Shown here one piece after another: positions 3 to 44,345 of a DNA stretch of 64,000 nt. This stretch comes from Escherichia phage AV123: sequence record OR352953.1; one strand, given 5' to 3'. The first letter of the stretch is position 1; each line of letters begins with the position of its first letter. The translations under genes and the position numbers were made by a program. The notes beneath the pieces are model-generated. The model made no database searches. It was not told where the DNA came from and saw only the letters and a program-made list of their open reading frames with translations.

Positions 3-752
3 GGATCAGATGACTGGGAAAACTCTACAATTGTTAGTAATATCAATTGTAATGTTTTTAAATGGCGTGGGCTACCATCTAGCTCTACCTTTAATAATAT
101 TCGTTGCCGTAGTATTGACTTTATTGGTCAACACGGAAGCGGAGAAGGAAGTGGTGGCGGTTTCTATACTCGCAGCCAATTCACGTATATGAAGTGGGTA
201 GGATGTACAGCACTTAGCGGAGATGAAACAACAGTTTCTTTTGCTAAAATCTACACTGATCGTTGCGATCAGGTTGGAAATAACTTTGGTGTTCCAACTG
301 CTGTTGATGGAACAGGTCATCGTGGGCCAGTTTTAACTACTATTTCTGAACAATATTTTACAACTTATGATGAATTCCCAGGTGGGCGTGAATTCCCTAC
401 TGGAACAGTTATTCATTGTGCAAGCGGTAAAAAACATGTTGTTACAGTAGGTGGTGCTTTCTTTAGTGCCAACGAGAAAATAAAAGCAACTGTTACAGGT
501 CAAACCTATCTACAGTCTAATGCTTTAAACTGGGCTAGTAATGGCTACGCTAAAGCAGCAGGTACTAAGATTGTTATTCCAGGTGCAGGTGCAAATGGCG
601 GCGATCTTGTGACAACTATAGCACGTGCTACATATGTGACAAATAGTTTGTACACAATAGATATTGCAGATCCAATTGTAACACCTACAGCAGAGAATAC
701 ACAAATTAAAGCTCTGAACCCTGTTACTTTTGTTACTGTCAATAATGCTTAA
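3..752 (+). CDS. C-terminal part of a structural (tail-fibre-like) protein; 5' end outside window
   Basis: Frame is open from base 3 to the stop at 750-752; track ORF 189..752 is an internal Met of the same frame; hairpin terminator follows. Confidence 0.5.
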   Translation, partial: GSDDWENSTIVSNINCNVFKWRGLPSSSTFNNIRCRSIDFIGQHGSGEGSGGGFYTRSQFTYMKWVGCTALSGDETTVSFAKIYTDRCDQVGNNFGVPTAVDGTGHRGPVLTTISEQYFTTYDEFPGGREFPTGTVIHCASGKKHVVTVGGAFFSANEKIKATVTGQTYLQSNALNWASNGYAKAAGTKIVIPGAGANGGDLVTTIARATYVTNSLYTIDIADPIVTPTAENTQIKALNPVTFVTVNNA

Positions 753-793: not shown

Positions 794-2755
794 GTGATTT
801 TAACACGTCCAAATAGTGCCATTGCAGACATGGTAGAGTCTCGCTATAGAAAGCGTAGAAGTTTTGCAAGTGGTTTTACCTTAAGAGATGCTCGTGAAGC
901 ATTGCTCTTTGAAACTGACGGTAACTACTATCAGTGGAAAGGTTCTCTACCTAAAGTTGTACCTGCTAACTCTACTCCTACATCTACTGGAGGGATTTCA
1001 GATACAGCTTGGAAAAATGTGGGTAATGCAGATGACATTGCTCAAATAGAATCAGAATTAGATGCTATTGAAGCTGAAATTGAAGATCTTAGAGAATCCA
1101 TTCCAGAAGCTGGTAAATCAGCTTACCAGATTGCCGTAGACAATGGTTTCCAAGGTACTGAGACAGAGTGGTTGGCTTCTTTAAAAGGTGATCCAGGTGC
1201 TCCATTAAAGCTGCTAGGGACGCTATCTAATACCAACCAATTACCTACAACTGGAAACAATGCAGGAGATGCATGGATTGTAGGCGAGAATATGTATGCT
1301 TGGGATGGTACTGCTTGGAGAAAAGTAAACTCACAGGGGCCAGAAGGTAAATCGGCTTATCAAGTTTGGCTTGCAGCAGGAAACCAAGGTACAGAACTAG
1401 ATTATCTTGCTTCAATTAAAGGTGATAAAGGGGAGCCTGGCCCAGAGGGGCCACAAGGTGTACCAGGTAACAATGCTAATGGTTTTGATTACCAAGGTGC
1501 AGCTAATTCCGTTTCAGATCTTCCTTCTGCATCTCCTGGAAACACATCTCAAGCATGGAATATTGGTACATATCTATACGTGTCAAACGGTGTAGAATGG
1601 ATCAATATGGGCGCTATAGTGGGGCCAAAAGGAGATAAAGGCGACAAAGGAGATAAGGGTAACACTGGTGATTCAGCTTATCAAGTCTGGTTAAACGCTG
1701 GTAACGTTGGTACTATTGACGAATATATTGCCTCTCTGAAAGGAGAAAAAGGTGATAAGGGAGATAAGGGTGATCAAGGTGAGCAGGGTATACAAGGCTT
1801 GACGGGGCCAACTGGTGCAGGGTTGACCATTATTGATATTCTGACTGACACTTCTGAACTACCACAAACTGGAGAAGATGGTGATGGTTATCTGATCAAT
1901 AATGAACTTTGGGTTTGGTTGCAAGGAGCCACACAGTGGACAAATGTTGGTCGTTTAGCTGGTACTCCAATCACTGCAAAAGGACACGTTGCGTCTGCAA
2001 GTGCACTTCCTCCTACATCCAATTACGGTGATGCTTATTTGACGGAAGATACAGGTCATCTTTACATTTACACCTATGATGAACAAACTCAAACTGCTGA
2101 ATATGTAGATATGGGTAGTTTGAAAGGTGATAAGGGTGAGAAAGGTGACGCTGGTACTAACGGTACAGACGGTGCTACTTGGATTGTTAAAACAACAGAT
2201 CCAATCTCTAGTGATGGTAAACAAGGTGATTATGCCTTTAATATCTCCACTGGCGAGGTGTTCTTAAAAACATCTGCAACTGTCTGGACTTCTCAAGGTA
2301 CACTACCTAGCATCACAGATGCACCTAGTGACGGTAAGATCTATGCTCGTAAAGATGGAGCATGGGAAGAACTAACTAGTTCTGTAGATGGTCAAGATAT
2401 AGTTCCAACAAAAGTAACAGCTAATTTTATAGAGGTTACAGCATACACCAACAACTCTGTTACAGGGGACTGGACACCTCCAGGAACACATAACATGAAT
2501 GTGTTGAATCTTACTGGTAACTCTACTATAAAAGCATGGCCTGGTGTCGAAGATAGCACAAAACCTAAACCATTCTCTGCAATAGTTTATCTTATCCAAG
2601 ATGCCACTGGGGGTCATACTGTTACTTTAGATCCATCTTACAAAGTAATTGGTTCTAGTGATATTAATACAGATCCTAACGGAGTAACAATACTACAACT
2701 AACATATTGTGGTGTTGGTGATTACGTGGATGCTATTGTTGCTAAACGCACATAA
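794..2755 (+). CDS. Tail fibre protein with collagen-like Gly-X-Y repeats
   Basis: GTG start 7 nt after AAGGAG; repeated GDKGDKGDKG / GEKGDKGDKGDQGEQGIQGLTGPTG triplets in translation. Confidence 0.75.
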   Translation: MILTRPNSAIADMVESRYRKRRSFASGFTLRDAREALLFETDGNYYQWKGSLPKVVPANSTPTSTGGISDTAWKNVGNADDIAQIESELDAIEAEIEDLRESIPEAGKSAYQIAVDNGFQGTETEWLASLKGDPGAPLKLLGTLSNTNQLPTTGNNAGDAWIVGENMYAWDGTAWRKVNSQGPEGKSAYQVWLAAGNQGTELDYLASIKGDKGEPGPEGPQGVPGNNANGFDYQGAANSVSDLPSASPGNTSQAWNIGTYLYVSNGVEWINMGAIVGPKGDKGDKGDKGNTGDSAYQVWLNAGNVGTIDEYIASLKGEKGDKGDKGDQGEQGIQGLTGPTGAGLTIIDILTDTSELPQTGEDGDGYLINNELWVWLQGATQWTNVGRLAGTPITAKGHVASASALPPTSNYGDAYLTEDTGHLYIYTYDEQTQTAEYVDMGSLKGDKGEKGDAGTNGTDGATWIVKTTDPISSDGKQGDYAFNISTGEVFLKTSATVWTSQGTLPSITDAPSDGKIYARKDGAWEELTSSVDGQDIVPTKVTANFIEVTAYTNNSVTGDWTPPGTHNMNVLNLTGNSTIKAWPGVEDSTKPKPFSAIVYLIQDATGGHTVTLDPSYKVIGSSDINTDPNGVTILQLTYCGVGDYVDAIVAKRT

Positions 2756-2757
2756 TC

Positions 2758-2776
2758 AAAGCCCCTTCGGGGGCTT
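2758..2776 (+). terminator. Hairpin terminator
   Basis: AAAGCCCCTTCGGGGGCTT (UUCG-type loop) after stop. Confidence 0.6.
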
Positions 2777-2794
2777 ATTGTTTAAGGAGATTAA

Positions 2795-4681
2795 ATGTAT
2801 CCTATTCCTTTATTTATGTCAACAACATCAGCTTCAGTAGTAACAGCTACATCTATAACTACTTCCTCTATTGGTATTGCAATAGTTGGTGGTAAAAAAC
2901 AACTGACATACACAGTTACACCGGAAGATGGTGCATTATTTGATATAGCTTTTTCATCTTCAGATGATACCAAAATGGTTATAGATAATAATGGTATGAT
3001 GGAGTTTGTTGCCGAAGGTGGTTTTGATGCAATAATGACAGCTAAAAATAATTTAGGTGCTGTCTTAACTGATCAATCTGGTGGTTATGCTTCAGAATTA
3101 AGTGTGTACACTGAAAGTCTATCGGCTATGGATGTAGGCACTACTCAACAGTTGGTTGCTACAATCCGTCCAGAAGGTGCTAAAGACCTTCCAGACATGG
3201 TAATTACATACACCACAACAGATCCAGAAGTAGCTACTGTAAGCTCTACAGGATTAATAACTGCTCTTAAAGATGGCAATTGCCGTATAGGTTGTACTGC
3301 AACGTATCAAGGAACAGTTGTGGCCTCTGATAGTTCTTATTTAGGTGTTAATGCTATTCCTGTTATTTCTAATGTAACAGCCGTGGCAAACAGTTATGGA
3401 GACGTTCGTGTTGCTTGGGATGTAACTGATCCGCTAGATGGTGATACTTATACTGTAGAAGTATTAGATTTAAGTGATAATAGTGTCCAGTGGACTACAA
3501 CAACCACAAATACTTACGCCTACTTTGATATCTCTGACTCTATTCCTCTTTATGGGTTTGCTCCAACATACCTTAAAATTAGCGTTAAGAGCACCAAAGC
3601 AGCAGCCGTTATCTTTAATAGCTCAATAGCTACAGATGATTCATTCATTAAAGAAGTTATTGTCTTTGCTGGACAAGATAACGTAAATGCACACTTTACA
3701 GAACTATCTGGCGCAAATAAAGCAGCAATGAGTAGCACAACAGCCCGTAATGCATATGCTACGCAACGTGGTTTAGCAAATGCTGAAGTTCTTCCGTTAA
3801 ATGCAGCTTCTGGATCATCAGCAGCAGATAAATATGCAGATGATAAAGCCGGAACAGGAACGCCAGACAACTACTGGTATGATCTGGATAACACAGCAGA
3901 TGGGCCATGCTTAACTAACTTTATCACTAAAGTCACACCTTATGCAAGTAAGGTTAAAGCAATTATTTGGGGACAAGGTGAAAATGATGCTGTATCAGCA
4001 TCTTCGACTGTTGCAGGTAGGTACAGTAACACTACACGTTACCATGATGCTACGATAGCTATCTTTGATAAGATGCGTACAATAGTTCCTGCTTCTCAAG
4101 CAAAAATTGTTTGGCAGATCCTAGGACGTTCTTATTTATATGGTGTAGAAGTTAATGGTGTGGATTGGCAGAAGTACAGAAATGTACAAAGAACCATCTC
4201 TACAGCACGTGATGATGTTATCATTGGTTCTTGGGTAGATGGTGCTGAACGTTACAGTGGTTATGTTTATGAAGAAGGTATTGATGGTCGTATCCATTAT
4301 ATTTCTTCTGTATACCAAACAGCAGCTACAAAACTTGCTAAATCGGCAGCAGACGGTACAGACTTAACATCAGCGTCACCTGTTTGGGTTGATATGTCTG
4401 TTCCAACAGGAGGAGCCGCTGTAAGACAAGCTAACCAAGATGCAATTATCTCTTGGGAACCAGCAGGATATACTAAACATTACTTCCGAAATGTAAACGT
4501 CCTCACAGCAGCAATTCTTACAGAACAAACCCTGGATACTAACACTTACACATTTACTTATGCAGATCAGGTTGAACAATATGGATTTGCAGCAGGTACA
4601 ACAGCGTTTGATGTTGCACACTATGATGCTGATAATGACGTGTTATCACCTCTTGTCAGATTTACAGTCAATGTTACATAA
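2795..4681 (+). CDS. Large tail fibre/spike protein with possible SGNH/SASA-type esterase motif
   Basis: AAGGAG RBS; T/S/V-rich Ig-like N-terminal region; IIWGQGENDA resembles the W-x-QGE-xD motif of sialate O-acetylesterase-like hydrolases. Confidence 0.55.
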   Translation: MYPIPLFMSTTSASVVTATSITTSSIGIAIVGGKKQLTYTVTPEDGALFDIAFSSSDDTKMVIDNNGMMEFVAEGGFDAIMTAKNNLGAVLTDQSGGYASELSVYTESLSAMDVGTTQQLVATIRPEGAKDLPDMVITYTTTDPEVATVSSTGLITALKDGNCRIGCTATYQGTVVASDSSYLGVNAIPVISNVTAVANSYGDVRVAWDVTDPLDGDTYTVEVLDLSDNSVQWTTTTTNTYAYFDISDSIPLYGFAPTYLKISVKSTKAAAVIFNSSIATDDSFIKEVIVFAGQDNVNAHFTELSGANKAAMSSTTARNAYATQRGLANAEVLPLNAASGSSAADKYADDKAGTGTPDNYWYDLDNTADGPCLTNFITKVTPYASKVKAIIWGQGENDAVSASSTVAGRYSNTTRYHDATIAIFDKMRTIVPASQAKIVWQILGRSYLYGVEVNGVDWQKYRNVQRTISTARDDVIIGSWVDGAERYSGYVYEEGIDGRIHYISSVYQTAATKLAKSAADGTDLTSASPVWVDMSVPTGGAAVRQANQDAIISWEPAGYTKHYFRNVNVLTAAILTEQTLDTNTYTFTYADQVEQYGFAAGTTAFDVAHYDADNDVLSPLVRFTVNVT

Positions 4682-4683
4682 AC

Positions 4684-4713
4684 AAAAAGGAGCCTATTGG
4701 CTCCTTTTCTTTT
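4684..4713. terminator. Bidirectional hairpin terminator between convergent genes
   Basis: AAAAAGGAGCCTATTGGCTCCTTTTCTTTT lies between + gene end 4681 and - gene end 4717. Confidence 0.65.
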
Positions 4714-4716
4714 ATC

Positions 4717-5148
4717 TTAATCAGTGAAAATTACGCTTACATCTTCTTTAGAGAAGAGTTTATGATCTTCACCTTTTGTCTCAAGAGTTTCATACAGGTT
4801 AAGAAGTTCTGAAACATCCTTCTCTACCAGTTTCTTCAATGTTGCAATTTTCTGTTTGCGATTCTTAATACGTTCAGCTACAACCTTACGTTGGTATCCG
4901 GCAGTACGATAACCTGAGAAAGTTACACCAGTGAGACTTGCAGTTACAGGATCGTAATGACGTTCAATCTGAAATTTATTAAAAGGTACAGCGTCATCAC
5001 GAATAATCTTACCGCCATTACTTACTTGACGAAGACCAGTAACTTGTTCCAGTCGTGCCATAGAAATCTTTGGAGACAGACCAGAGTCCAGGTTCATACC
5101 GTTGTTAATCAGTGCTTTCAGGGTGATTTTGCTGTTCAGTGTACTCAT
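4717..5148 (-). CDS. Hypothetical protein
   Basis: GGAGGAA RBS before ATG at 5148; overlaps 3' end of the methyltransferase gene. Confidence 0.5.
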   Translation of the reverse strand: MSTLNSKITLKALINNGMNLDSGLSPKISMARLEQVTGLRQVSNGGKIIRDDAVPFNKFQIERHYDPVTASLTGVTFSGYRTAGYQRKVVAERIKNRKQKIATLKKLVEKDVSELLNLYETLETKGEDHKLFSKEDVSVIFTD

Positions 5149-5836
5149 TTAGTCGTTCCTCCGCTTGCTTAAAAATATTTACATCGGCTTCACAGCCTAA
5201 GTATTCTCTACCTGTTAAAAGTGCCGCAACTTGTGTTGTTGCACTTCCAGAGAAGAAGTCTAAGACTACATCTCCTTCGTTGGTGTGTATATTAATAAGG
5301 TCACAAAACAAAGTCAAGTGCTTTTGTGTTGGATGAAAACGATCTGCTCCTTGATAGATAGGATACTCAAACACACCCTTATGGTAGGAAGCATTGAAGG
5401 TTGGCTTCGAACCTTTAACACAAACAATAGCCATCTCTTTAGCGTTACTAAGGTAGTTAACACCACTGTTGATGGGTACAGGGTTTGTTTTAATCCATTC
5501 AATAGTACGGAACATACGAAAACCAAGCGGTTCAAGGATTTCACGTAGCTCCTGGATCTTCCAGATATCATACCAAACTATGCAAGTACCACCTTTTCTA
5601 AGCACCCTATAGGCTTCTTTGAATACTTCTTTAAAGTAAGGAATATCTACAACATCCCAATCACCAAAGTTGTAAGATACACGGAATCTATCTGTATCTT
5701 TTCCAGTAGGCTCTCCAGATTGAAAATTTGTATCACGAGAAATAGCATATGGTGGGTCAGTAAGAATCAAATCTACACTGTTGCTTTCGAGGGTTTGCAG
5801 GTAGTTTAATGCGGTGTTGTTTACAAATTCGCTCAT
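5105..5836 (-). CDS. DNA methyltransferase (beta-class N6-adenine or N4-cytosine)
   Basis: LILTDPPYAI (DPPY motif) precedes DFFSGSATT (FxGxG SAM motif); that motif order defines the beta class. Confidence 0.8.
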   Translation of the reverse strand: MSEFVNNTALNYLQTLESNSVDLILTDPPYAISRDTNFQSGEPTGKDTDRFRVSYNFGDWDVVDIPYFKEVFKEAYRVLRKGGTCIVWYDIWKIQELREILEPLGFRMFRTIEWIKTNPVPINSGVNYLSNAKEMAIVCVKGSKPTFNASYHKGVFEYPIYQGADRFHPTQKHLTLFCDLINIHTNEGDVVLDFFSGSATTQVAALLTGREYLGCEADVNIFKQAEERLNEYTEQQNHPESTD

Positions 5837-5854
5837 TATATCTCCTTCAAAGAA

Positions 5855-5874
5855 AAGGAGCCGTTAGGCTCCTT
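5855..5874 (-). terminator. Hairpin terminator
   Basis: AAGGAGCCGTTAGGCTCCTT between genes. Confidence 0.5.
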
Positions 5875-5896
5875 ATATTCACACAATATTTAACTA

Positions 5897-6844
5897 TTAG
5901 AAACAGTGCAGGAAGTTTCGACCATACTGCAAACCAATAGGAGCAAATGGGATATCATCATCGAAATCTTGAACAACAGGTTCTGGCTCTTTCGGTGCTG
6001 GCTCTTTCTTCTCTACTTTTTTAGTTTCTTTCTTAACTTCTTGTACTGGGGTAGACATTCCACGGATAGCAGCAGCTACTTTATCAGACAAAGCAAGAAC
6101 TTCACGAGCAGCTTCAATAATCTCTTCTGCCGTTACAGTTTTACCTGTATGATCACGACAAGCATTAAGAATTGCGTGTCCAACTGAAGCACCAAGATCA
6201 TAATCAGTTACATCAACGCCACGATCTTTAGCAATTTCAGCTTTCAGAGTAACAGTTGCAGATTGTACCACACCAGCCAAATCGAAAGCATCACCTTTCA
6301 CACCAGCACGTAGAAGCTCCAGAGCGCCGTTTACAGCGTGTCCTGTTTCAATCCCTACGGTATCACGTTTTTTGTAGTTAGGCTTGCTACCATCGTTATT
6401 AGATGGCTTATTTCCACCTTTTGAAGAAGATTGTGCTTGCTGAACACCTTCTGTTGAAAGAATAGTGATTTTACCTTTAGAGGAATTGTAGTATGTTTTG
6501 CCATTCCATTCAGAAGGTTTAACATCCATAGTTAGTTCTACACCTTTTTCGATAGTAACCCACTTATCACCATCTTTAACTTGCAGGTTTTCATGTTCTG
6601 GGTGCAGTTTAACTTCACCTAAGCTAACCCAAACACCTTTATCATCAGCACCAGCACCTTTCTCTTTAATAAGCAGAGATGCTTTGTGAGTTGATTCAAT
6701 TTTCTTATCTGGCTGACCTGCAACCTTAATATAAGAGACTTTCATTTCATCAAACTTATCTAGTTTGACATATTCGACAATACCTTCAGCCCAGAATGCT
6801 TCTTTTTTAGTACGGCGGTCGATTTCAGAATTAATTACTGGCAT
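5897..6844 (-). CDS. Putative ssDNA-binding protein with SSB-type acidic tip motif
   Basis: GAGGAG RBS; translation contains DFDDDIPF (E. coli SSB C-terminal tip) 18 residues before the end; K/E-rich linker. Confidence 0.45.
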   Translation of the reverse strand: MPVINSEIDRRTKKEAFWAEGIVEYVKLDKFDEMKVSYIKVAGQPDKKIESTHKASLLIKEKGAGADDKGVWVSLGEVKLHPEHENLQVKDGDKWVTIEKGVELTMDVKPSEWNGKTYYNSSKGKITILSTEGVQQAQSSSKGGNKPSNNDGSKPNYKKRDTVGIETGHAVNGALELLRAGVKGDAFDLAGVVQSATVTLKAEIAKDRGVDVTDYDLGASVGHAILNACRDHTGKTVTAEEIIEAAREVLALSDKVAAAIRGMSTPVQEVKKETKKVEKKEPAPKEPEPVVQDFDDDIPFAPIGLQYGRNFLHCF

Positions 6845-6860
6845 AAATTCTCCTCTATAA

Positions 6861-7259
6861 TTACATTACTTTAACACAAAACTCTCGTAAAAGAGTAGCG
6901 TCAGTTTCTTCCAACAGGTATTTACCAAGACCAATACCAAAGCCTATTTCACCACTTTCAAAATGGAGAATTTGTATCTTTTCTCCACCAAGATTAATTA
7001 CTTTTGCTTTTCCAGGATTATCCAAAACATCTCGTATTGTATCCTGTAATAACATAAGCTCACGTTTTGTGATAGTGGTTTCAGATATCTCTTTGTTTTC
7101 TACTCTCACTGTTAAACGATTGTATCCACCAAAGAGACACAGTATTTGAATAAAAAAGGTATTATCTTGAGGTTCAACATCTTTTTTGGTTAGCTCAAGA
7201 CGATTAGTTTCTCTACTGTAGAACGTCTCGACTAAGATTTTAGAACGATTATCTGTCAT
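6861..7259 (-). CDS. Hypothetical protein
   Basis: ORF with GAGGA RBS in operon context. Confidence 0.5.
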   Translation of the reverse strand: MTDNRSKILVETFYSRETNRLELTKKDVEPQDNTFFIQILCLFGGYNRLTVRVENKEISETTITKRELMLLQDTIRDVLDNPGKAKVINLGGEKIQILHFESGEIGFGIGLGKYLLEETDATLLREFCVKVM

Positions 7260-7302
7260 TCAAGTCCTCATAATAACACATAATTATAATGTTTGTCAAC
7301 AC

Positions 7303-7896
7303 TTAAATTTTAAATTCTTCATTGTTAAATGAATCCAGTGTACGTACTTCTGGTTCTTTGGGAATGAAAACGTCTTTTACAAAACGGAACATAGGGAAAC
7401 GTTCTGCCATTTTACGGACGTGTGCTTCTTTACCTGTGTATCGGTGATTAATAGTGCAAATATTAGTCTTCAATGCAAATTCAAAATCTGGATGATATAC
7501 ATAGTTTTGACCATCCCAGTAACACAGGCAGATAGCTACATCAAAGTTCCATACGATTTCACTGCGTACACCTTCTTCCATGATCATAAAGTTAAACTTA
7601 AGATCTTTATAGTATGCTTCAAATACCCATTTCAAATGTGGTAGTTCGGCATAAGTGTGTTCTGTTTGCTTAGTAAGTTGTTTCACATTACGTGCACCAA
7701 CACCCAACATCAAAAATTTCTCTACTAATACGAGTGTATTGTGGTTAGGCATACGCAAGTAAATGTCAATATCTTGCGCAGGTTTCTCTAATCGCCAATC
7801 ACGTACAGCGCCGCCAGCTACAATTGCAAACGGATCTACCAGTTGGCACATACGTAATACTTCTAAAGCTCGTACTTTTTGATCTTCAATATTCAT
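7303..7896 (-). CDS. Pol-beta superfamily nucleotidyltransferase (CCA-adding / poly(A) polymerase head-like)
   Basis: GGAVRD followed by DIDI catalytic motif in the N-terminal 50 residues; 197 aa. Confidence 0.6.
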   Translation of the reverse strand: MNIEDQKVRALEVLRMCQLVDPFAIVAGGAVRDWRLEKPAQDIDIYLRMPNHNTLVLVEKFLMLGVGARNVKQLTKQTEHTYAELPHLKWVFEAYYKDLKFNFMIMEEGVRSEIVWNFDVAICLCYWDGQNYVYHPDFEFALKTNICTINHRYTGKEAHVRKMAERFPMFRFVKDVFIPKEPEVRTLDSFNNEEFKI

Positions 7897-39776: not shown

Positions 39777-40205
39777 TTATTCTCCAAATCGAAAATCGTC
39801 AATATCATCAAACCATACACAATGGCGAGTCCTTTCTTTTTCTGTTGCAGACATTGTTTCAACAGCTTTAGGACTAAGCACAACAGGAGTGTAACGAATA
39901 GGTCGTTCATAATAGTAGCCATACTTTTCTGTATTAGCTGCCTCAAAGACTTTACGGCGTTCTTCAAGATCTTCTATGGTGAATCCTACCATATAACCAT
40001 CATGTTTGCTACCCCATCCTTCCTCACTTTCAACAATCGGGATATAAAAGCCGTTACGCGTCCCTGACACTGGTTTTTCTTGAGCCTGAAGGCAAGCCTC
40101 CCATCCTGCTTTAAAGACGTTATAGAGCGATTTACGCACGTTATGAGTGCCGCTTTCGCTTGCTGGATAGAGTTCATTAAATTTGTCTTGAATTTGTTGT
40201 GTCAT
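39777..40205 (-). CDS. Hypothetical protein
   Basis: AAGGGGCG RBS. Confidence 0.5.
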   Translation of the reverse strand: MTQQIQDKFNELYPASESGTHNVRKSLYNVFKAGWEACLQAQEKPVSGTRNGFYIPIVESEEGWGSKHDGYMVGFTIEDLEERRKVFEAANTEKYGYYYERPIRYTPVVLSPKAVETMSATEKERTRHCVWFDDIDDFRFGE

Positions 40206-40348
40206 ACTCGCCCCTTAGTGATTATTTGACCAGCTAAACAAATAGCTTGTAGTACAATAAAGAAGTAGCCTAATTTTACACTACCTAATACCCAGAATGC
40301 AATGTTTGCAAACAAACAGAAAGCAATATTAAGTTTAAAGAATAACAT
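40202..40348 (-). CDS. Small hydrophobic ORF (48 aa), coupled
   Basis: GAAGGGG RBS; ATGA overlap with downstream gene. Confidence 0.3.
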   Translation of the reverse strand: MLFFKLNIAFCLFANIAFWVLGSVKLGYFFIVLQAICLAGQIITKGRV

Positions 40349-40549
40349 TTAATCCCCTTCATATTTAGGTAAAGGCATATATGCCACAATAGGAGGGTAA
40401 TCAAAGTGAAAATGATGGTTCACCACAATAATCTTACCAGACATACTTTTATGCACTTCACAATACCCTTTTTCACCATCTTCCATTACCACCACATACT
40501 CACCTAGTGGGATATCGTATGGATCTTCTACTTTTACCCATCCTGTCAT
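40349..40549 (-). CDS. Hypothetical protein
   Basis: GAGGAG RBS. Confidence 0.45.
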   Translation of the reverse strand: MTGWVKVEDPYDIPLGEYVVVMEDGEKGYCEVHKSMSGKIIVVNHHFHFDYPPIVAYMPLPKYEGD

Positions 40550-40698
40550 TTTGTAAACTCCTCATAGTAAGGTAAAGCCTTGATCAGTTGTTCTGAAGTG
40601 CCATTTTGCACCCACGTAACACCATTGTCAACAGAAACATACCCTTTTTTGTCAATAAATTTACGCAGACAACCAGTGAACTTATTTTTGTAGATCAT
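40546..40698 (-). CDS. Small ORF (50 aa), coupled
   Basis: ATGA overlaps at both ends; AAAGGAAAG upstream. Confidence 0.35.
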   Translation of the reverse strand: MIYKNKFTGCLRKFIDKKGYVSVDNGVTWVQNGTSEQLIKALPYYEEFTK

Positions 40699-40862
40699 TT
40701 CTTCTTTCCTTTTTTGATTACAGCCCCATCACTTCCTTGCCAAACTTCCGCTCTAAATTCCATCTCAAACCACTCACCACCGCAAAAACGGCTGTGTTCA
40801 ACACGTCTATCTTCCTTCATTGCTTCTTTAGCTTCGATAGAAGTTAGTTCGATGTTTTGCAT
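40695..40862 (-). CDS. Small ORF (55 aa), first gene of - strand block
   Basis: AAAGGAGAAAAG before ATG at 40862 (MQNIELTS...); track ORF 40695..41036 is an upstream extension. Confidence 0.4.
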   Translation of the reverse strand: MQNIELTSIEAKEAMKEDRRVEHSRFCGGEWFEMEFRAEVWQGSDGAVIKKGKKK

Positions 40863-40980
40863 TTGCTTTTCTCCTTTCATTTGGTATGCGCTAATCTTAA
40901 CAAAATAAAAATGTATGTCAATACTTGATTTGAAATTAGTTTCTGGTACTCTGTGTGTATCGTAACAAAAGAGGTTAGAT
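40863..40980. promoter_or_regulatory. Divergent promoter region at strand switch
   Basis: 118-bp AT-rich gap between divergently oriented first genes (- 40862, + 40981). Confidence 0.4.
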
Positions 40981-41271
40981 ATGAACATCACACTAGCAAC
41001 TAAGAATATTACAGAAACTTTCGATGGTTTTGGCATTATTATTGCTGTTCATGGGCATAACGAAAAATGGTTAGCCTCTTTTGAAGAGGACAAAGAACGC
41101 AATGTACGTTTGAATGCACCAATCAAAGTTTTACACCAGGTAGGTGAGAATAAGAAACAATGGAGATCATACAAAGAGTGGAACATTACAAACGAATTAA
41201 TACACAAACTTGACAAAGTGCTAAACATGTTCGACAATGCACCAAGCAGTGCAAAACGTGTTTTACTATAA
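40981..41271 (+). CDS. Hypothetical protein
   Basis: ORF with AGAGG RBS. Confidence 0.5.
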   Translation: MNITLATKNITETFDGFGIIIAVHGHNEKWLASFEEDKERNVRLNAPIKVLHQVGENKKQWRSYKEWNITNELIHKLDKVLNMFDNAPSSAKRVLL

Positions 41272-41282
41272 AGGAGAGTGAT

Positions 41283-41636
41283 ATGAAAATTGTACACGAT
41301 GAAATTCAATTTGAAGAGAGTGATCTTCTTGATCTGGATGTGACACTAAGTAAACTGATCTACAACGCACTTTCTGCATATCGTGCAAAAGTGATAGCCA
41401 CAAACAATGTTAAAATTCCTAGCGGGTTACTTCGTCGGATGTACCCACACGCTAAAGGTGACTATCTACCTTATATGGAAGAACGAGCAGCAGAACACTG
41501 GTTAGAAATTCTTGAAAAAATGGAGTCCTCTTTTAAGGATTCAACTCCACCTGAAGAAGTTAATGAAAAACAACGGCAAGAGCGTTTAGAAGGTCGTATT
41601 TTGTTTGCTAAGTATTTCCATAATTTGTGGAGCTAA
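41283..41636 (+). CDS. Hypothetical protein
   Basis: AAAGGAGAG RBS. Confidence 0.5.
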   Translation: MKIVHDEIQFEESDLLDLDVTLSKLIYNALSAYRAKVIATNNVKIPSGLLRRMYPHAKGDYLPYMEERAAEHWLEILEKMESSFKDSTPPEEVNEKQRQERLEGRILFAKYFHNLWS

Positions 41637-41716
41637 ACATATCTGGTAAAATCACTTATATGTTCTTAGTATACTTGTGTAAAGAAGTTATCGGTCTAAT
41701 TAATTAAGGGGAAGAT

Positions 41717-41968
41717 ATGATTCAGTTTCAAAAAGGTCAAAAGATGACAGTTCACGATGCAGAGGAAATGGAGTTTGCACTTAAACTTCTCGAAAATGCT
41801 GGGTTTGTGTGGATCAACGGTGGAGAGAAGCCTACAGCTTGGCTTCCGCATGAGAAAATAGCCAACCACACCTTCCCTGATAGTATCAATTGGCATTCTG
41901 ATGGTAAGATTTGCCGTGGAAGTTACCCAACAGGTGTTGAGTGGACTATTAAATTAGGAGGGCTTTAA
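41717..41968 (+). CDS. Hypothetical protein
   Basis: AAGGGGAAG RBS. Confidence 0.5.
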   Translation: MIQFQKGQKMTVHDAEEMEFALKLLENAGFVWINGGEKPTAWLPHEKIANHTFPDSINWHSDGKICRGSYPTGVEWTIKLGGL

Positions 41969-41969
41969 T

Positions 41970-42308
41970 ATGTTTAGTAAAGAAATGAGAGAAGTAATTG
42001 CCACTTTGGTAGTTGATCATGGTGTTGAAGTTGAGCGTCACGTTTGGAACGATGAACCTCCTTTCTTCGATTTGGCATCACGAGCTAAAAGTCATATGCA
42101 CCTGCTGGAAGACGGTAATGAGTTTGTTCTCCGTATGCGTTATGATCGAGAGTTTCGAATTCCGCTTGACACTGAACCAGATGGTGTAGTAATGTGGTTG
42201 GCAGAACATTTCGCATACGATGCACTACATGGAAGAAGTTTTGGTAATGAGCGTTGGGATGCCATTTGTCGTAAGCATAATATTGAACCAGAGTACGGAG
42301 TTTTATAA
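41970..42308 (+). CDS. Hypothetical protein
   Basis: AGGAGGG RBS. Confidence 0.5.
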   Translation: MFSKEMREVIATLVVDHGVEVERHVWNDEPPFFDLASRAKSHMHLLEDGNEFVLRMRYDREFRIPLDTEPDGVVMWLAEHFAYDALHGRSFGNERWDAICRKHNIEPEYGVL

Positions 42309-42559
42309 TGTTAAGTATCAAACCTAAAATGATAACAGCAGATGAAGCAGACTTTATTTTCAAATGTGGACGTGTATGGAGAGAATTCACAAAAGGGAAT
42401 GAAGTGGTGGTTGTTGTCGAACACAAGATATCTATCCAGGATCTGTTTGGACAATATGTTGATGTTATTAAATTAGGTATTGACAAGGGTTTAGTTGAGG
42501 TGTTAACATTAGATCAAGTTGAAGCAGAGCACCTCGACAAAGTAGTGGTTGAATTTTAA
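42308..42559 (+). CDS. Hypothetical protein
   Basis: Coupled (TAATG). Confidence 0.45.
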   Translation: MLSIKPKMITADEADFIFKCGRVWREFTKGNEVVVVVEHKISIQDLFGQYVDVIKLGIDKGLVEVLTLDQVEAEHLDKVVVEF

Positions 42560-42579
42560 AATACAGATGGGAGAAAGGT

Positions 42580-42753
42580 ATGAGTTTCTTTGTTACAGTA
42601 TTTATGGCTATCTGGATTGTAGTCTCACTCGTTCTTTTCCTGGTGGGTTGTCTGGAAGAGATTAAGAAAGCGGTTATTTGCGGTTTCTTTGGCTTTATTA
42701 TCTCTCCTGCCTGGATGTGGTTCTTCATTATGATTGGTTTCCTTAAAAGGTAA
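42580..42753 (+). CDS. Small membrane protein (57 aa), not in track
   Basis: GGGAGAAAGG RBS; two hydrophobic helices. Confidence 0.4.
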   Translation: MSFFVTVFMAIWIVVSLVLFLVGCLEEIKKAVICGFFGFIISPAWMWFFIMIGFLKR

Positions 42754-42767
42754 GTGAGGAATAAAGA

Positions 42768-43205
42768 ATGAGTAAAACAAACGCAATCGCAGATAAAGCA
42801 ACTGATGTACTTCTGAACATGGTTAACGTCACTATTCAAACAATGAGTGATGTTGTAGAGTTTGGAAAACAACAAATTCCAGAAGTAATTCATCAATTAT
42901 TAATGTGGAAAGCAGTATCCGCAGGTTTATGGCAACTTTTTAGTATTTGCTTTATGTTTATTACTTTTATTGTTGTGCGGAACCTCATAAAAGCAATTAA
43001 AGATAAAGAATGTCTGTGGTCACGAGATCGCTATGGTGAGGTATCTGCTTTGCCTATTGTTGGTCTTGTTGTCTGTGCTTTCTTTTTCTTTTTAGGATTT
43101 GTTATTTTCTTTTCGAATTTCGATTGGCTAAAAATTATTATTGCACCAAAAGTGTATCTGATTGAATTTGCTGCTGATTTAATTCGTTCATCTCAACAAA
43201 GATAA
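42768..43205 (+). CDS. Membrane protein
   Basis: GAGGAA RBS; several TM segments. Confidence 0.5.
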   Translation: MSKTNAIADKATDVLLNMVNVTIQTMSDVVEFGKQQIPEVIHQLLMWKAVSAGLWQLFSICFMFITFIVVRNLIKAIKDKECLWSRDRYGEVSALPIVGLVVCAFFFFLGFVIFFSNFDWLKIIIAPKVYLIEFAADLIRSSQQR

Positions 43206-43217
43206 AAGGGGTTTAAA

Positions 43218-44345
43218 ATGAAATACACGATTTATGGTGATATTGTAAGTGTAAATAAAGATATGGGCGTGGAATCTAACTATCTTCCACCTGGATTCTA
43301 TACTGTTAGTCGTGATCCCCTTGGCAATTACTTTTTAAGCCGTGGTAATCTAACAGGTGTACCGGATGTTCTGTATGGTGAAACAGAAAAACGAGCAAAT
43401 CACGTTATTCGTACATTCCATCGCCGGAGTGCACAAGGTAAAAATACAGGTTTGCTCCTGACAGGCACTAAGGGCAGTGGTAAAACTATGTTAGCCAAAC
43501 TCATTAGTCGTGACCTTGTAGAAGAAGGTATTCCAACTATTATGGTTACTCAAGCCTACAGCGATGCTAATTTCATTGAACTTATTAGCAAGATCACCGA
43601 CAAAGCAGTGATTATTTTTGACGAGTTTGATAAAGTATATGAGAAGAAACAAGATCAAGAAGCACTTCTCACTTTGTTAGATGGTACTGGCAGTGGTAAT
43701 AAACTGTTTATTCTAACTAAAAACAGTGGCTTTATCTCTGAATTCTTTCTAAATCGTCCTAGTCGTGTGTTTTATAATTTTAATTATGATAAAATCTCAC
43801 TAGAAACTATGATTGACTATTTAGATAAAAACCTGGATAACAAAGCACACTTTGATAATTTCCAAAGGCTTTGGGATGTAAGTTTAGAGTTGTCCTTTGA
43901 TGTGATCCAAGGTATAGTAGAAGAACTTAATTTCTACCCTGATTTATCCTTTAAAGAATGCATCTCTATGATGGGCGTTTCTTTGGGTGGTGGTAATAAG
44001 TGGGATATCAGCAGCGTTGTTATTAATGGGAAACTTCAGAAAGTTAGCTGGGTATCTAGTTGGCATAACTTCACACCTGCAATCTTTTTAGGTGGCTCGT
44101 GCACACTAGACGTGTACTTGTCATCTCCAAGTGATGCAGACTCTAAAGAAGCCCTTGCTAATAGCTCTTACGTGGTTTTTGATGATGAAGGAGATGCTCG
44201 AATTCCATTGAATGCGACAAAAATGAAAGCAGATCTTATTACAGGCGGTAAAATCGTTGTGTTTAGTGATGATCCAGAAGATTCTTTCCGTATTGTTCTG
44301 GAACCAACTATCACCAATGGTGCAACTTTGGCAAGCGTGTTTTAA
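43218..44345 (+). CDS. P-loop NTPase (AAA-like), paralog of 28095..29255
   Basis: Walker A GTKGSGKT, Walker B IIFDEFDK; LLTLLDG and NRPSR segments shared with the - strand paralog. Confidence 0.65.
   Translation: MKYTIYGDIVSVNKDMGVESNYLPPGFYTVSRDPLGNYFLSRGNLTGVPDVLYGETEKRANHVIRTFHRRSAQGKNTGLLLTGTKGSGKTMLAKLISRDLVEEGIPTIMVTQAYSDANFIELISKITDKAVIIFDEFDKVYEKKQDQEALLTLLDGTGSGNKLFILTKNSGFISEFFLNRPSRVFYNFNYDKISLETMIDYLDKNLDNKAHFDNFQRLWDVSLELSFDVIQGIVEELNFYPDLSFKECISMMGVSLGGGNKWDISSVVINGKLQKVSWVSSWHNFTPAIFLGGSCTLDVYLSSPSDADSKEALANSSYVVFDDEGDARIPLNATKMKADLITGGKIVVFSDDPEDSFRIVLEPTITNGATLASVF

Follow-up and report, generated by a model that had tools for sequence, protein, structure and literature searches.

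The tail gene and its domains

The 64,000 nucleotides (nt) of Escherichia phage AV123 (OR352953.1) that were analysed, called the window below and numbered as a whole, contain a plus-strand block of tail-fibre genes, the last of which, at 2795-4681, encodes a protein of 628 amino acids (aa). This protein may well be a non-hydrolysing glycan adhesin, derived from an esterase and carried on a modular side fibre: its central domain is predicted to have the SGNH fold of the SASA family, and the serine that serves as nucleophile in that family is replaced by an aspartate. The gene and its parts are as follows.

2795..4681, +: complete open reading frame, 628 aa plus stop, short allele; phrog_32204 "tail protein" matched over its full length (PHROGs)
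2795..2875, +: N-terminal peptide MYPIP..., aa 1-27, conserved with the 40-49%-identical relatives P0034-P0037
2876..3358, +: two Big_2 Ig-like domains, aa ~28-188 (Pfam Big_2, E=2.2e-14, 2 stretches)
3362..3625, +: FN3-like beta-sandwich domain A, aa 190-277, matching an FN3-like repeat of phiAxp-3 ORF69 (1301-1378, independent E-value 1.5e-10)
3626..4384, +: SASA-type SGNH-fold domain, esterase-derived, aa 278-530 (fold search, transitive Pfam matches)
4385..4678, +: FN3-like beta-sandwich domain B, aa 531-628; its homologues are the 1-3 repeats at the C-terminus of gp65-type proteins (Foldseek FN3 matches)

Identity to Escherichia phage muut is 99.2% in the window region, which also matches 55 records of phi92-like phages (Justusliebigvirus); the frame is intact, with a strong ribosome-binding site (RBS), in 50+ genomes. 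Ig-like repeats had been read from the sequence upstream of the esterase-like region, and the two Big_2 stretches that precede the domain in this tail-cluster protein bear this out. The N-terminal peptide is possibly an attachment segment. The Big_2 cassette recurs, at 65-74% identity, within RCC1-containing tail proteins, where the partner domains are different ones, and in one protein of the RCC1 type it is fused directly to the extra 311-aa domain found in the long allele of the AV123 gene (see below). FN3-like domain B, which in a PDB profile search weakly matched the FnIII domain of chitinase A1, is mosaic between alleles, with a synonymous divergence (dS) of ~1.2. Taken together, the comparisons point to a virion tail protein of a phi92-like myophage, either side-fibre or receptor-binding, that was probably assembled from shuffled modules.

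The SGNH domain

Using Pfam directly, the AV123 protein reaches only 15.1-16.1 bits (E 0.009-0.017) against SASA (PF03629), under the gathering threshold of 24.8 bits. Word-indexed homologue searches with the C-terminal half and with a mixed profile (A1) gave nothing beyond close relatives or fragments, so an exhaustive search was carried out instead, in which a profile of the SGNH domain, built from the window protein and its 47-49%-identical relatives, was run against 1.84 billion representatives. This gave 109 matches at E<=1e-3, 16 of them at E<=1e-30, the majority carrying the canonical GQSN, G-S, W-x-QGE-x-D and (W)IHY motifs. SASA is matched by 18 of the 27 aligned members, and several strong homologues pass its threshold (P0129, 30.8 bits; P0131, 26.3; P0146, 34.8; P0164, 48.6; P0170, 51.2).

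An AlphaFold2 model of the whole protein from its single sequence had a mean predicted confidence (pLDDT) of 32 and was unusable; it was replaced by a model of aa 270-628 based on a 27-sequence alignment, which has a pLDDT of 95 and a predicted TM score (pTM) of 0.90 and displays the three-layer alpha/beta/alpha SGNH fold. Foldseek against the PDB placed gp65 of phage N4 first (E~1e-23, TM 0.78, ~370 columns), followed by SGNH esterases and FN3 domains, while a viral structure library returned the orthologue of phage alia, phi92 gp153, N4-like gp65 and many phage SGNH esterase tailspikes of the Possum, Sf12 and K30 types. In profile searches of the PDB, profile A1 found N4 gp65 only and profile A3 weakly found 2apj (E 0.007) and 1zmb (E 0.046); these matches being weak, the link to SASA rests on the fold search and the transitive Pfam matches, which make the domain a true member of the SASA/SGNH fold class.

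Catalytic motifs and the loss of the nucleophile

In the SASA-family structure 1ZMB the motif blocks are GQSNM (I), EGGSSI (II), HQGESD (III) and D-x-I-H (V) (PMC10792757), and the Ser of GQSNM is the nucleophile (CE20 paper, PMC12313940). Their counterparts in the AV123 protein are listed here.

3671..3682, +: block I, G293-Q294-D295-N296(-V), with Asp (GAT, 3677-3679) at the nucleophile position; GQSNM in 1ZMB
3809..3820, +: block II, A-S339-G340-S341-S342-A, the oxyanion-hole Gly region, kept; EGGSSI in 1ZMB
3968..3988, +: block III, W392-G-Q394-G395-E396-N397-D398, kept; HQGESD in 1ZMB
4283..4297, +: block V, D497-G-R-I-H501, His kept; D-x-I-H in 1ZMB

In the model Asp295 lies where strand 1 passes into the helix after it. 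The spacing of block V (D-x-x-x-H) is one residue longer than the canonical D-x-x-H, and H501 aligns with the family His, which is found in 33 of the 42 sequences covering that block. Among the catalytic-motif residues, the nucleophile alone is substituted. The sequence-only reading had singled out IIWGQGENDA, which is indeed present (aa 390-399, positions 3962-3991) and holds the block III core, and had suggested from it and its surroundings that the protein might carry an esterase-type domain, which would act as a polysaccharide deacetylase. As regards the fold and the oxyanion-hole residues this holds good, but the GQSN nucleophile is absent from all orthologue clusters; of the expected Ser/His/Asp arrangement, H501 and D497 are present and the Ser is not.

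Asp occupies the nucleophile position in 36/36 related cluster representatives that cover block I. In the clusters of phi92 type, FAGQDN, WGQGENDA and RIHY are found in all 31 that cover the block, and the clusters of a sister group, 40-49% identical, all have FAGGDN (5/5). A mutation peculiar to the window, or a sequencing error, was also considered for Asp295 and is ruled out by the same count. Among wider homologue domains covering this column, Ser is found in 60 of 76. The sister group has in addition lost the Gly of block II (TFATSC) and the Gln and Asn of block III (WSLGEQDA), and in two of its five clusters the His has become Gln (RIQY), a decay which suggests that catalysis may already have been gone in the common ancestor. 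In a rough neighbour-joining tree both Asp groups fall in one clade, whose sister clade has GQSN (P0124, P0126); since they do so, a single ancestral Ser-to-Asp event is implied by these sequences. Ser was lost independently in P0125 (GQAN) and P0127 (GQMN) in the same tree.

Between the window and alia the SGNH domain has a ratio of non-synonymous to synonymous substitution rates (dN/dS) of ~0.11, from 4 non-synonymous against 11 synonymous changes; for the gene overall the value is 0.23. The low ratio, along with the invariant pocket residues of the phi92-like lineage, argues that the domain is still in use and probably under purifying selection. That the window copy might be a pseudogene was considered and ruled out by dN/dS, the RBS and the intact frame.

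Relationship to gp65 of phage N4

Only one solved structure gives a significant sequence match to the AV123 protein: N4 gp65, the "non-contractile tail sheath" (phmmer E=6.5e-24; PDB 9lc0, 9yf4, 9yf5). Residues 716-1075 of gp65 are homologous to aa ~272-628 of the AV123 protein, in the order FN3-SGNH-FN3, and both are tail-surface proteins in which an SGNH-like domain is followed by FN3-like repeats. The gp65-type proteins have two SGNH-like copies, here called A and B, and then 1-3 FN3-like repeats, whereas the AV123 protein has a single SGNH-like domain; it aligns best to "copy B + FN3". Copy B of gp65-type proteins is wholly degenerate at blocks I and III, with the fold conserved, while the AV123 domain keeps blocks II, III and V. 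The families NCTSP_N (PF23844) and PF23845 are present in N4, phiAxp-2, PspYZU01, Arace01 and RG-2014; Pfam finds no match to either in the AV123 protein, which carries Big_2 instead. In five gp65-type proteins Pfam in turn did not match SASA, only the gp65-specific N-terminal families, which lie upstream of the homologous region. The virions are also different: AV123 belongs to the contractile-tailed myoviruses, and the N4 sheath is a gp64-gp65 heterodimer surrounding a short tail. Among relatives that have the Ser, the closest is encoded by the final tail gene ahead of a lysis cassette. In the literature searched, which did not take in Schwarzer 2012, McPartland 2009 or Zheng 2025, gp65 was not found together with SGNH.

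The distribution of gp65-type proteins takes in podoviruses (N4, Arace01, RG-2014, phiAxp-3) and, unexpectedly, siphoviruses of the Casjensviridae (phiAxp-2, PspYZU01). In the latter two the gene, at 1529-5704 in phiAxp-2 and 1997-5323 in PspYZU01, lies directly after the tape measure gene, and copy A has lost the block I Ser (GDHT, GDQQ).

The best functional evidence for a receptor-binding role comes, by analogy, from the gp65 homologue of phiAxp-3, a distant relative, of which truncations showed that residues 795-1195 are required, and suffice, for competition with phage adsorption and for binding to a host lipopolysaccharide (LPS) preparation (PMC5862860). Copy B and the first FN3 of this protein (ORF69, 718-1084) align to aa ~272-627 of the AV123 protein, and the 795-1195 fragment covers the part aligned to aa ~350-627.

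No gp64 homologue was detected in the window or in the locus of PQ110661.1 (ZYD) that was searched. A gp64-like domain is encoded ~10 kb from the orthologue of the AV123 gene in muut, Eryne and EmilieFrey, so that each half of the N4 sheath heterodimer has, by homology, its counterpart in these myophages. In four N4-like phages the first ~80 residues of gp64 were themselves observed to match the C-terminal third of the SGNH profile (E 1.6e-7 to 5e-5), over a stretch that takes in the block V (I/L)-H-(F/Y) motif as well as the R-x-x-Q helix and the G-A strand. In the N4 locus gp65 lies at 1811-5959 and gp64 at 5992-7245; in three further N4-like loci gp64 lies at 5982-7244, 6049-7299 and 6027-7304. 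The first SGNH-like copy of gp65 has blocks I-III and ends before block V, with the Ser present in N4 (GESQ), Arace01 (GQSN), and RG-2014 and phiAxp-3 (GESN). The two proteins of the gp64-gp65 heterodimer may thus each contribute a part of one SGNH esterase, split between them, completed in trans and possibly active.

Short and long alleles, and the phi92 copy

At 936-939 aa, most of the orthologues in databases are longer, an extra C-terminal domain of 311 aa being added after "...VNVT". Judged by the junction sequence, the short form is found in 28 of 54 records (including muut, arall, ZYD, Eryne, VEcB and phi92) and the long form in 26. In alia the extra domain is encoded at 4539-5492, inserted relative to window positions ~4652-4669. 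It has no Pfam match; it is also found in phAPEC8-like myophages, in "tail tip/minor tail" proteins of siphophages of the Kagunavirus/Dhillonvirus type and in cyanophage structural proteins. The short-allele phage Eryne reportedly uses the NGR glycan (discussed below) poorly on K-12, while the long-allele BASEL phages are NGR-dependent; but K-12 MG1655 was the isolation host of muut, arall and outra, which have the short allele, making any correlation of allele with NGR a weak one.

The copy in the type phage phi92 (FR775895.2) has an internal deletion of ~218 bp, which is not a multiple of three; it falls at ~3486-3680 of the phi92 locus, equivalent to ~3385-3602 of the window, and removes the region of FN3-like domain A. 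This splits the gene into gp152, which has the Ig part and is annotated with the same AGGAG RBS, and gp153 ("no RBS identified"). The deletion may be a genuine mutation or may stem from an error in sequencing. A 2026 cryo-electron microscopy (cryo-EM) paper on phi92 is silent on the gp152 and gp153 products and, the copy being broken, the phi92 maps cannot locate the AV123 protein.

Possible functions

On E. coli K-12, N4, the Vequintavirinae and the phi92-like phages all need wecB and nfrB, that is, the NGR glycan (PMC8669472, PMC8594841), and this common dependence has been attributed to a shared gp64-like "deacetylase" fibre. Because phi92-like phages and N4 both depend on it, NGR is a candidate ligand of the AV123 protein as well, a speculative one. 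That the protein informs host range, as proposed from the sequence, is plausible; that it does so as a classical receptor-destroying deacetylase is unlikely, since the nucleophile is missing.

We put the probability that the protein is an esterase-derived, non-hydrolysing glycan adhesin at roughly 0.55. By this account the SGNH domain would have descended from true GQSN serine esterases of phage tails, the nucleophilic Ser becoming Asp295, while Q294, N296, G340, Q394, G395, E396, N397 and D398, which would line the acetyl/oxyanion pocket, were kept by purifying selection together with His501 and Asp497. The Ser-His-Asp acyl-enzyme cycle would no longer be run; the former active-site pocket and the FN3 domains would instead form an adhesin for a host surface glycan, probably an acetylated one, and hold the phage on the polysaccharide layer without stripping it. 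Several points weigh against this account. An active enzyme, too, would be expected to keep every one of its other catalytic-motif residues, as the phi92-like lineage does, and the dN/dS of the SGNH domain comes from 15 substitutions only. The reported binding partner of N4 gp65 is a protein, NfrA, and not a glycan. The phiAxp-3 fragment begins inside the SGNH-like domain, is ~22-27% identical to the AV123 protein and was tested on a crude LPS preparation. Finally, phi92, with its broken copy, still has a broad host range, so the protein is not essential.

The NfrA interaction fits with an SGNH-like and FN3 module that is structural or protein-binding, either as a spacer or adaptor for other heads such as the 311-aa domain or as a binder of an outer-membrane protein, the old active site having no ligand role. 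The conserved fold of the degenerate gp65 copy B would agree with this, as would the shuffling of the Big_2 cassette and of heads among relatives, the appending by 26/54 of them of a C-terminal domain that is also found on other phage tail proteins, and the lack of an intact copy in phi92. Nevertheless, in the window and in 28/54 relatives the protein has no further domain distal to this module, the pocket residues of the module are invariant in the phi92-like lineage but lost in the scaffold-like copy B, and the phiAxp-3 fragment binds a preparation that contains glycan (PMC5862860), all of which makes such a role unlikely. We consider it rather improbable, too, that the protein is an active carbohydrate O-acetylesterase that deacetylates capsule, O-antigen or exopolysaccharide from the fibre, with Asp295 as an unconventional nucleophile or with a water activated by Asp295 and His501. 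The fold, the canonical blocks II, III and V, invariant in phi92-like orthologues, and the purifying selection are all as such an enzyme would have them; its nearest relatives resemble real esterases, active esterase tailspikes exist in phages (G7C, with structural matches to the Possum, Sf12 and K30 types), and unusual SGNH triads are tolerated, as in the water-mediated triad of CE20 (PMC12313940). Two GenBank records, moreover, label the orthologue a "tail carbohydrate esterase". But the Ser is missing from every related cluster that covers block I, no SGNH hydrolase with an Asp nucleophile was found in the literature searched, and the Asp-bearing sister lineage shows drift of the His, Gly and Gln. 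From Ser to Asp (GAT) two substitutions are required, and each of the possible one-step intermediates, Ala, Gly, Asn and Tyr, would have lacked a nucleophile. The one entry of a structural survey with Asp as its nucleophile-position residue is Oskar's OSK domain (5A4A, GDDFM) (PMC10792757).

It is very unlikely, in particular, that Asp295 itself is catalytically at work in an Asp-His-Asp SGNH hydrolase or transferase, as nucleophile or by activating a water with the His, on a host glycan such as NGR; if it were, the SGNH superfamily would have a catalytic solution new to it, borne on a phage fibre, and this would explain the invariance of every other active-site residue in the phi92-like lineage. 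Least credible of all is a decaying, dispensable relic with no current function: the frameshifting ~218-bp deletion in phi92, the lost Ser and a terminator-like hairpin just upstream of the gene would suit it, while the intact frame and strong RBS in 50+ genomes, the dN/dS of 0.23 (0.11 in the SGNH domain) and the conservation of the protein at 40-49% identity in a separate phage group speak against it.

Neighbouring genes and database records

The features surrounding the gene are the following.

189..752, +: C-terminal end of a colanidase-type tailspike, upstream in the tail-fibre block
794..2755, +: gp151-like fibre gene, directly upstream, with its stop at 2755
2760..2783, +: terminator-like hairpin AGCCCC-TTCG-GGGGCT, then a T-rich run, between the gp151-like gene and the AV123 tail gene; read from the sequence
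2784..2789, +: RBS AAGGAG, 5 nt 5' of the ATG; read from the sequence
4685..4708, no strand assigned: bidirectional terminator-like hairpin; it lies in the gap of 35 nt that separates the AV123 tail gene from the convergent gene 4717..5148 (-)

The product of the gp151-like gene (794-2755) has an N-terminal domain of CBA120 TSP1/Gp66 type (E=3.6e-21), collagen-like G-X-Y repeats and a weak C-terminal match to fibritin; according to the 2026 phi92 cryo-EM paper, gp151 could not be fitted into any fibre density. At its 3' end the AV123 tail gene converges on minus-strand early genes, a methyltransferase and a DNA polymerase; the DNA methyltransferase (4717-5148, -, phrog_67) overlaps 5105-5836 (-; phrog_20244, function unknown) by 44 nt. 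The GC skew flips from ~-0.15 to ~+0.2 near 41-42 kb (window ~40000-44000), marking another switch of gene orientation or a replication-related boundary.

Some of the records retrieved appear to be misannotated. PQ110661.1 (vB_EcoM_ZYD) is classed in Vequintavirinae/Vequintavirus, yet is 99% identical here to Justusliebigvirus phages, and its gp64-like tail protein is annotated "capsid and scaffold"; both the class and the label look like annotation errors. Four "Campylobacter phage" records of ~146.4 kb (MG065639, MG065645, MG065656 and MG065689; phages A150, A145, C3 and A110a), with the host stated as C. jejuni, are 98-99% identical to the AV123 gene and its junction, and further "Campylobacter phage" records contain rV5-like gp64 homologues; all of them seem to be E. 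coli phage genomes that were given a wrong label or entered as contaminants.

Comparison with other SGNH proteins, and significance

Some GenBank annotations already point to the esterase-like nature of the protein: ALITA and KMB37 have "tail carbohydrate esterase", and KKE7M has "non-contractile tail sheath". What is new here is that the nucleophile has been lost, and in what evolutionary pattern; that the protein maps precisely to the receptor-binding half of gp65; and that the gene comes in two alleles and is broken in phi92.

Compared with the SASA or "putative acetylxylan esterase-like" family (PF03629; 1ZMB, 2APJ, NanS 3PT5), the AV123 protein differs in having Asp295 for Ser, a longer block V spacing and a sub-threshold Pfam score, and in that its domain is embedded between the FN3 domains of a phage tail protein. 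It shares with the SGNH esterase tailspikes and fibres of phages (G7C gp63.1, Possum, Moo19/B2, Sf12 and K30 types) the placing of an SGNH domain on a receptor-binding protein; those are active, or presumed so, and have the catalytic Ser, while this one lacks it and is of the SASA/gp65 lineage. Oskar's OSK domain is an RNA binder without catalytic activity. It resembles the AV123 domain in its block I Asp but is grouped as having lost most of the other blocks (PMC10792757), whereas the AV123 protein is changed at the nucleophile only. In the CE2 esterases (2w9x/2wao) the SGNH active site doubles as a carbohydrate-binding site, for cellulose, to go by the title of the 2w9x entry; there the Ser is kept, unlike here.

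The phi92-like phages attract study as multivalent "Swiss-army-knife" phages of broad host range, and as candidates for therapy. Their orthologues of the AV123 protein should not simply be annotated or engineered as deacetylases, an esterase-derived adhesin being more likely because the nucleophile is missing. Besides the gp64-like module, the protein would represent a second module shared between N4 and the NGR-dependent myophages, and a concrete candidate for the recognition of NGR or exopolysaccharide. The natural short and long alleles offer a simple entry to how enzymes become lectins on phage fibres.

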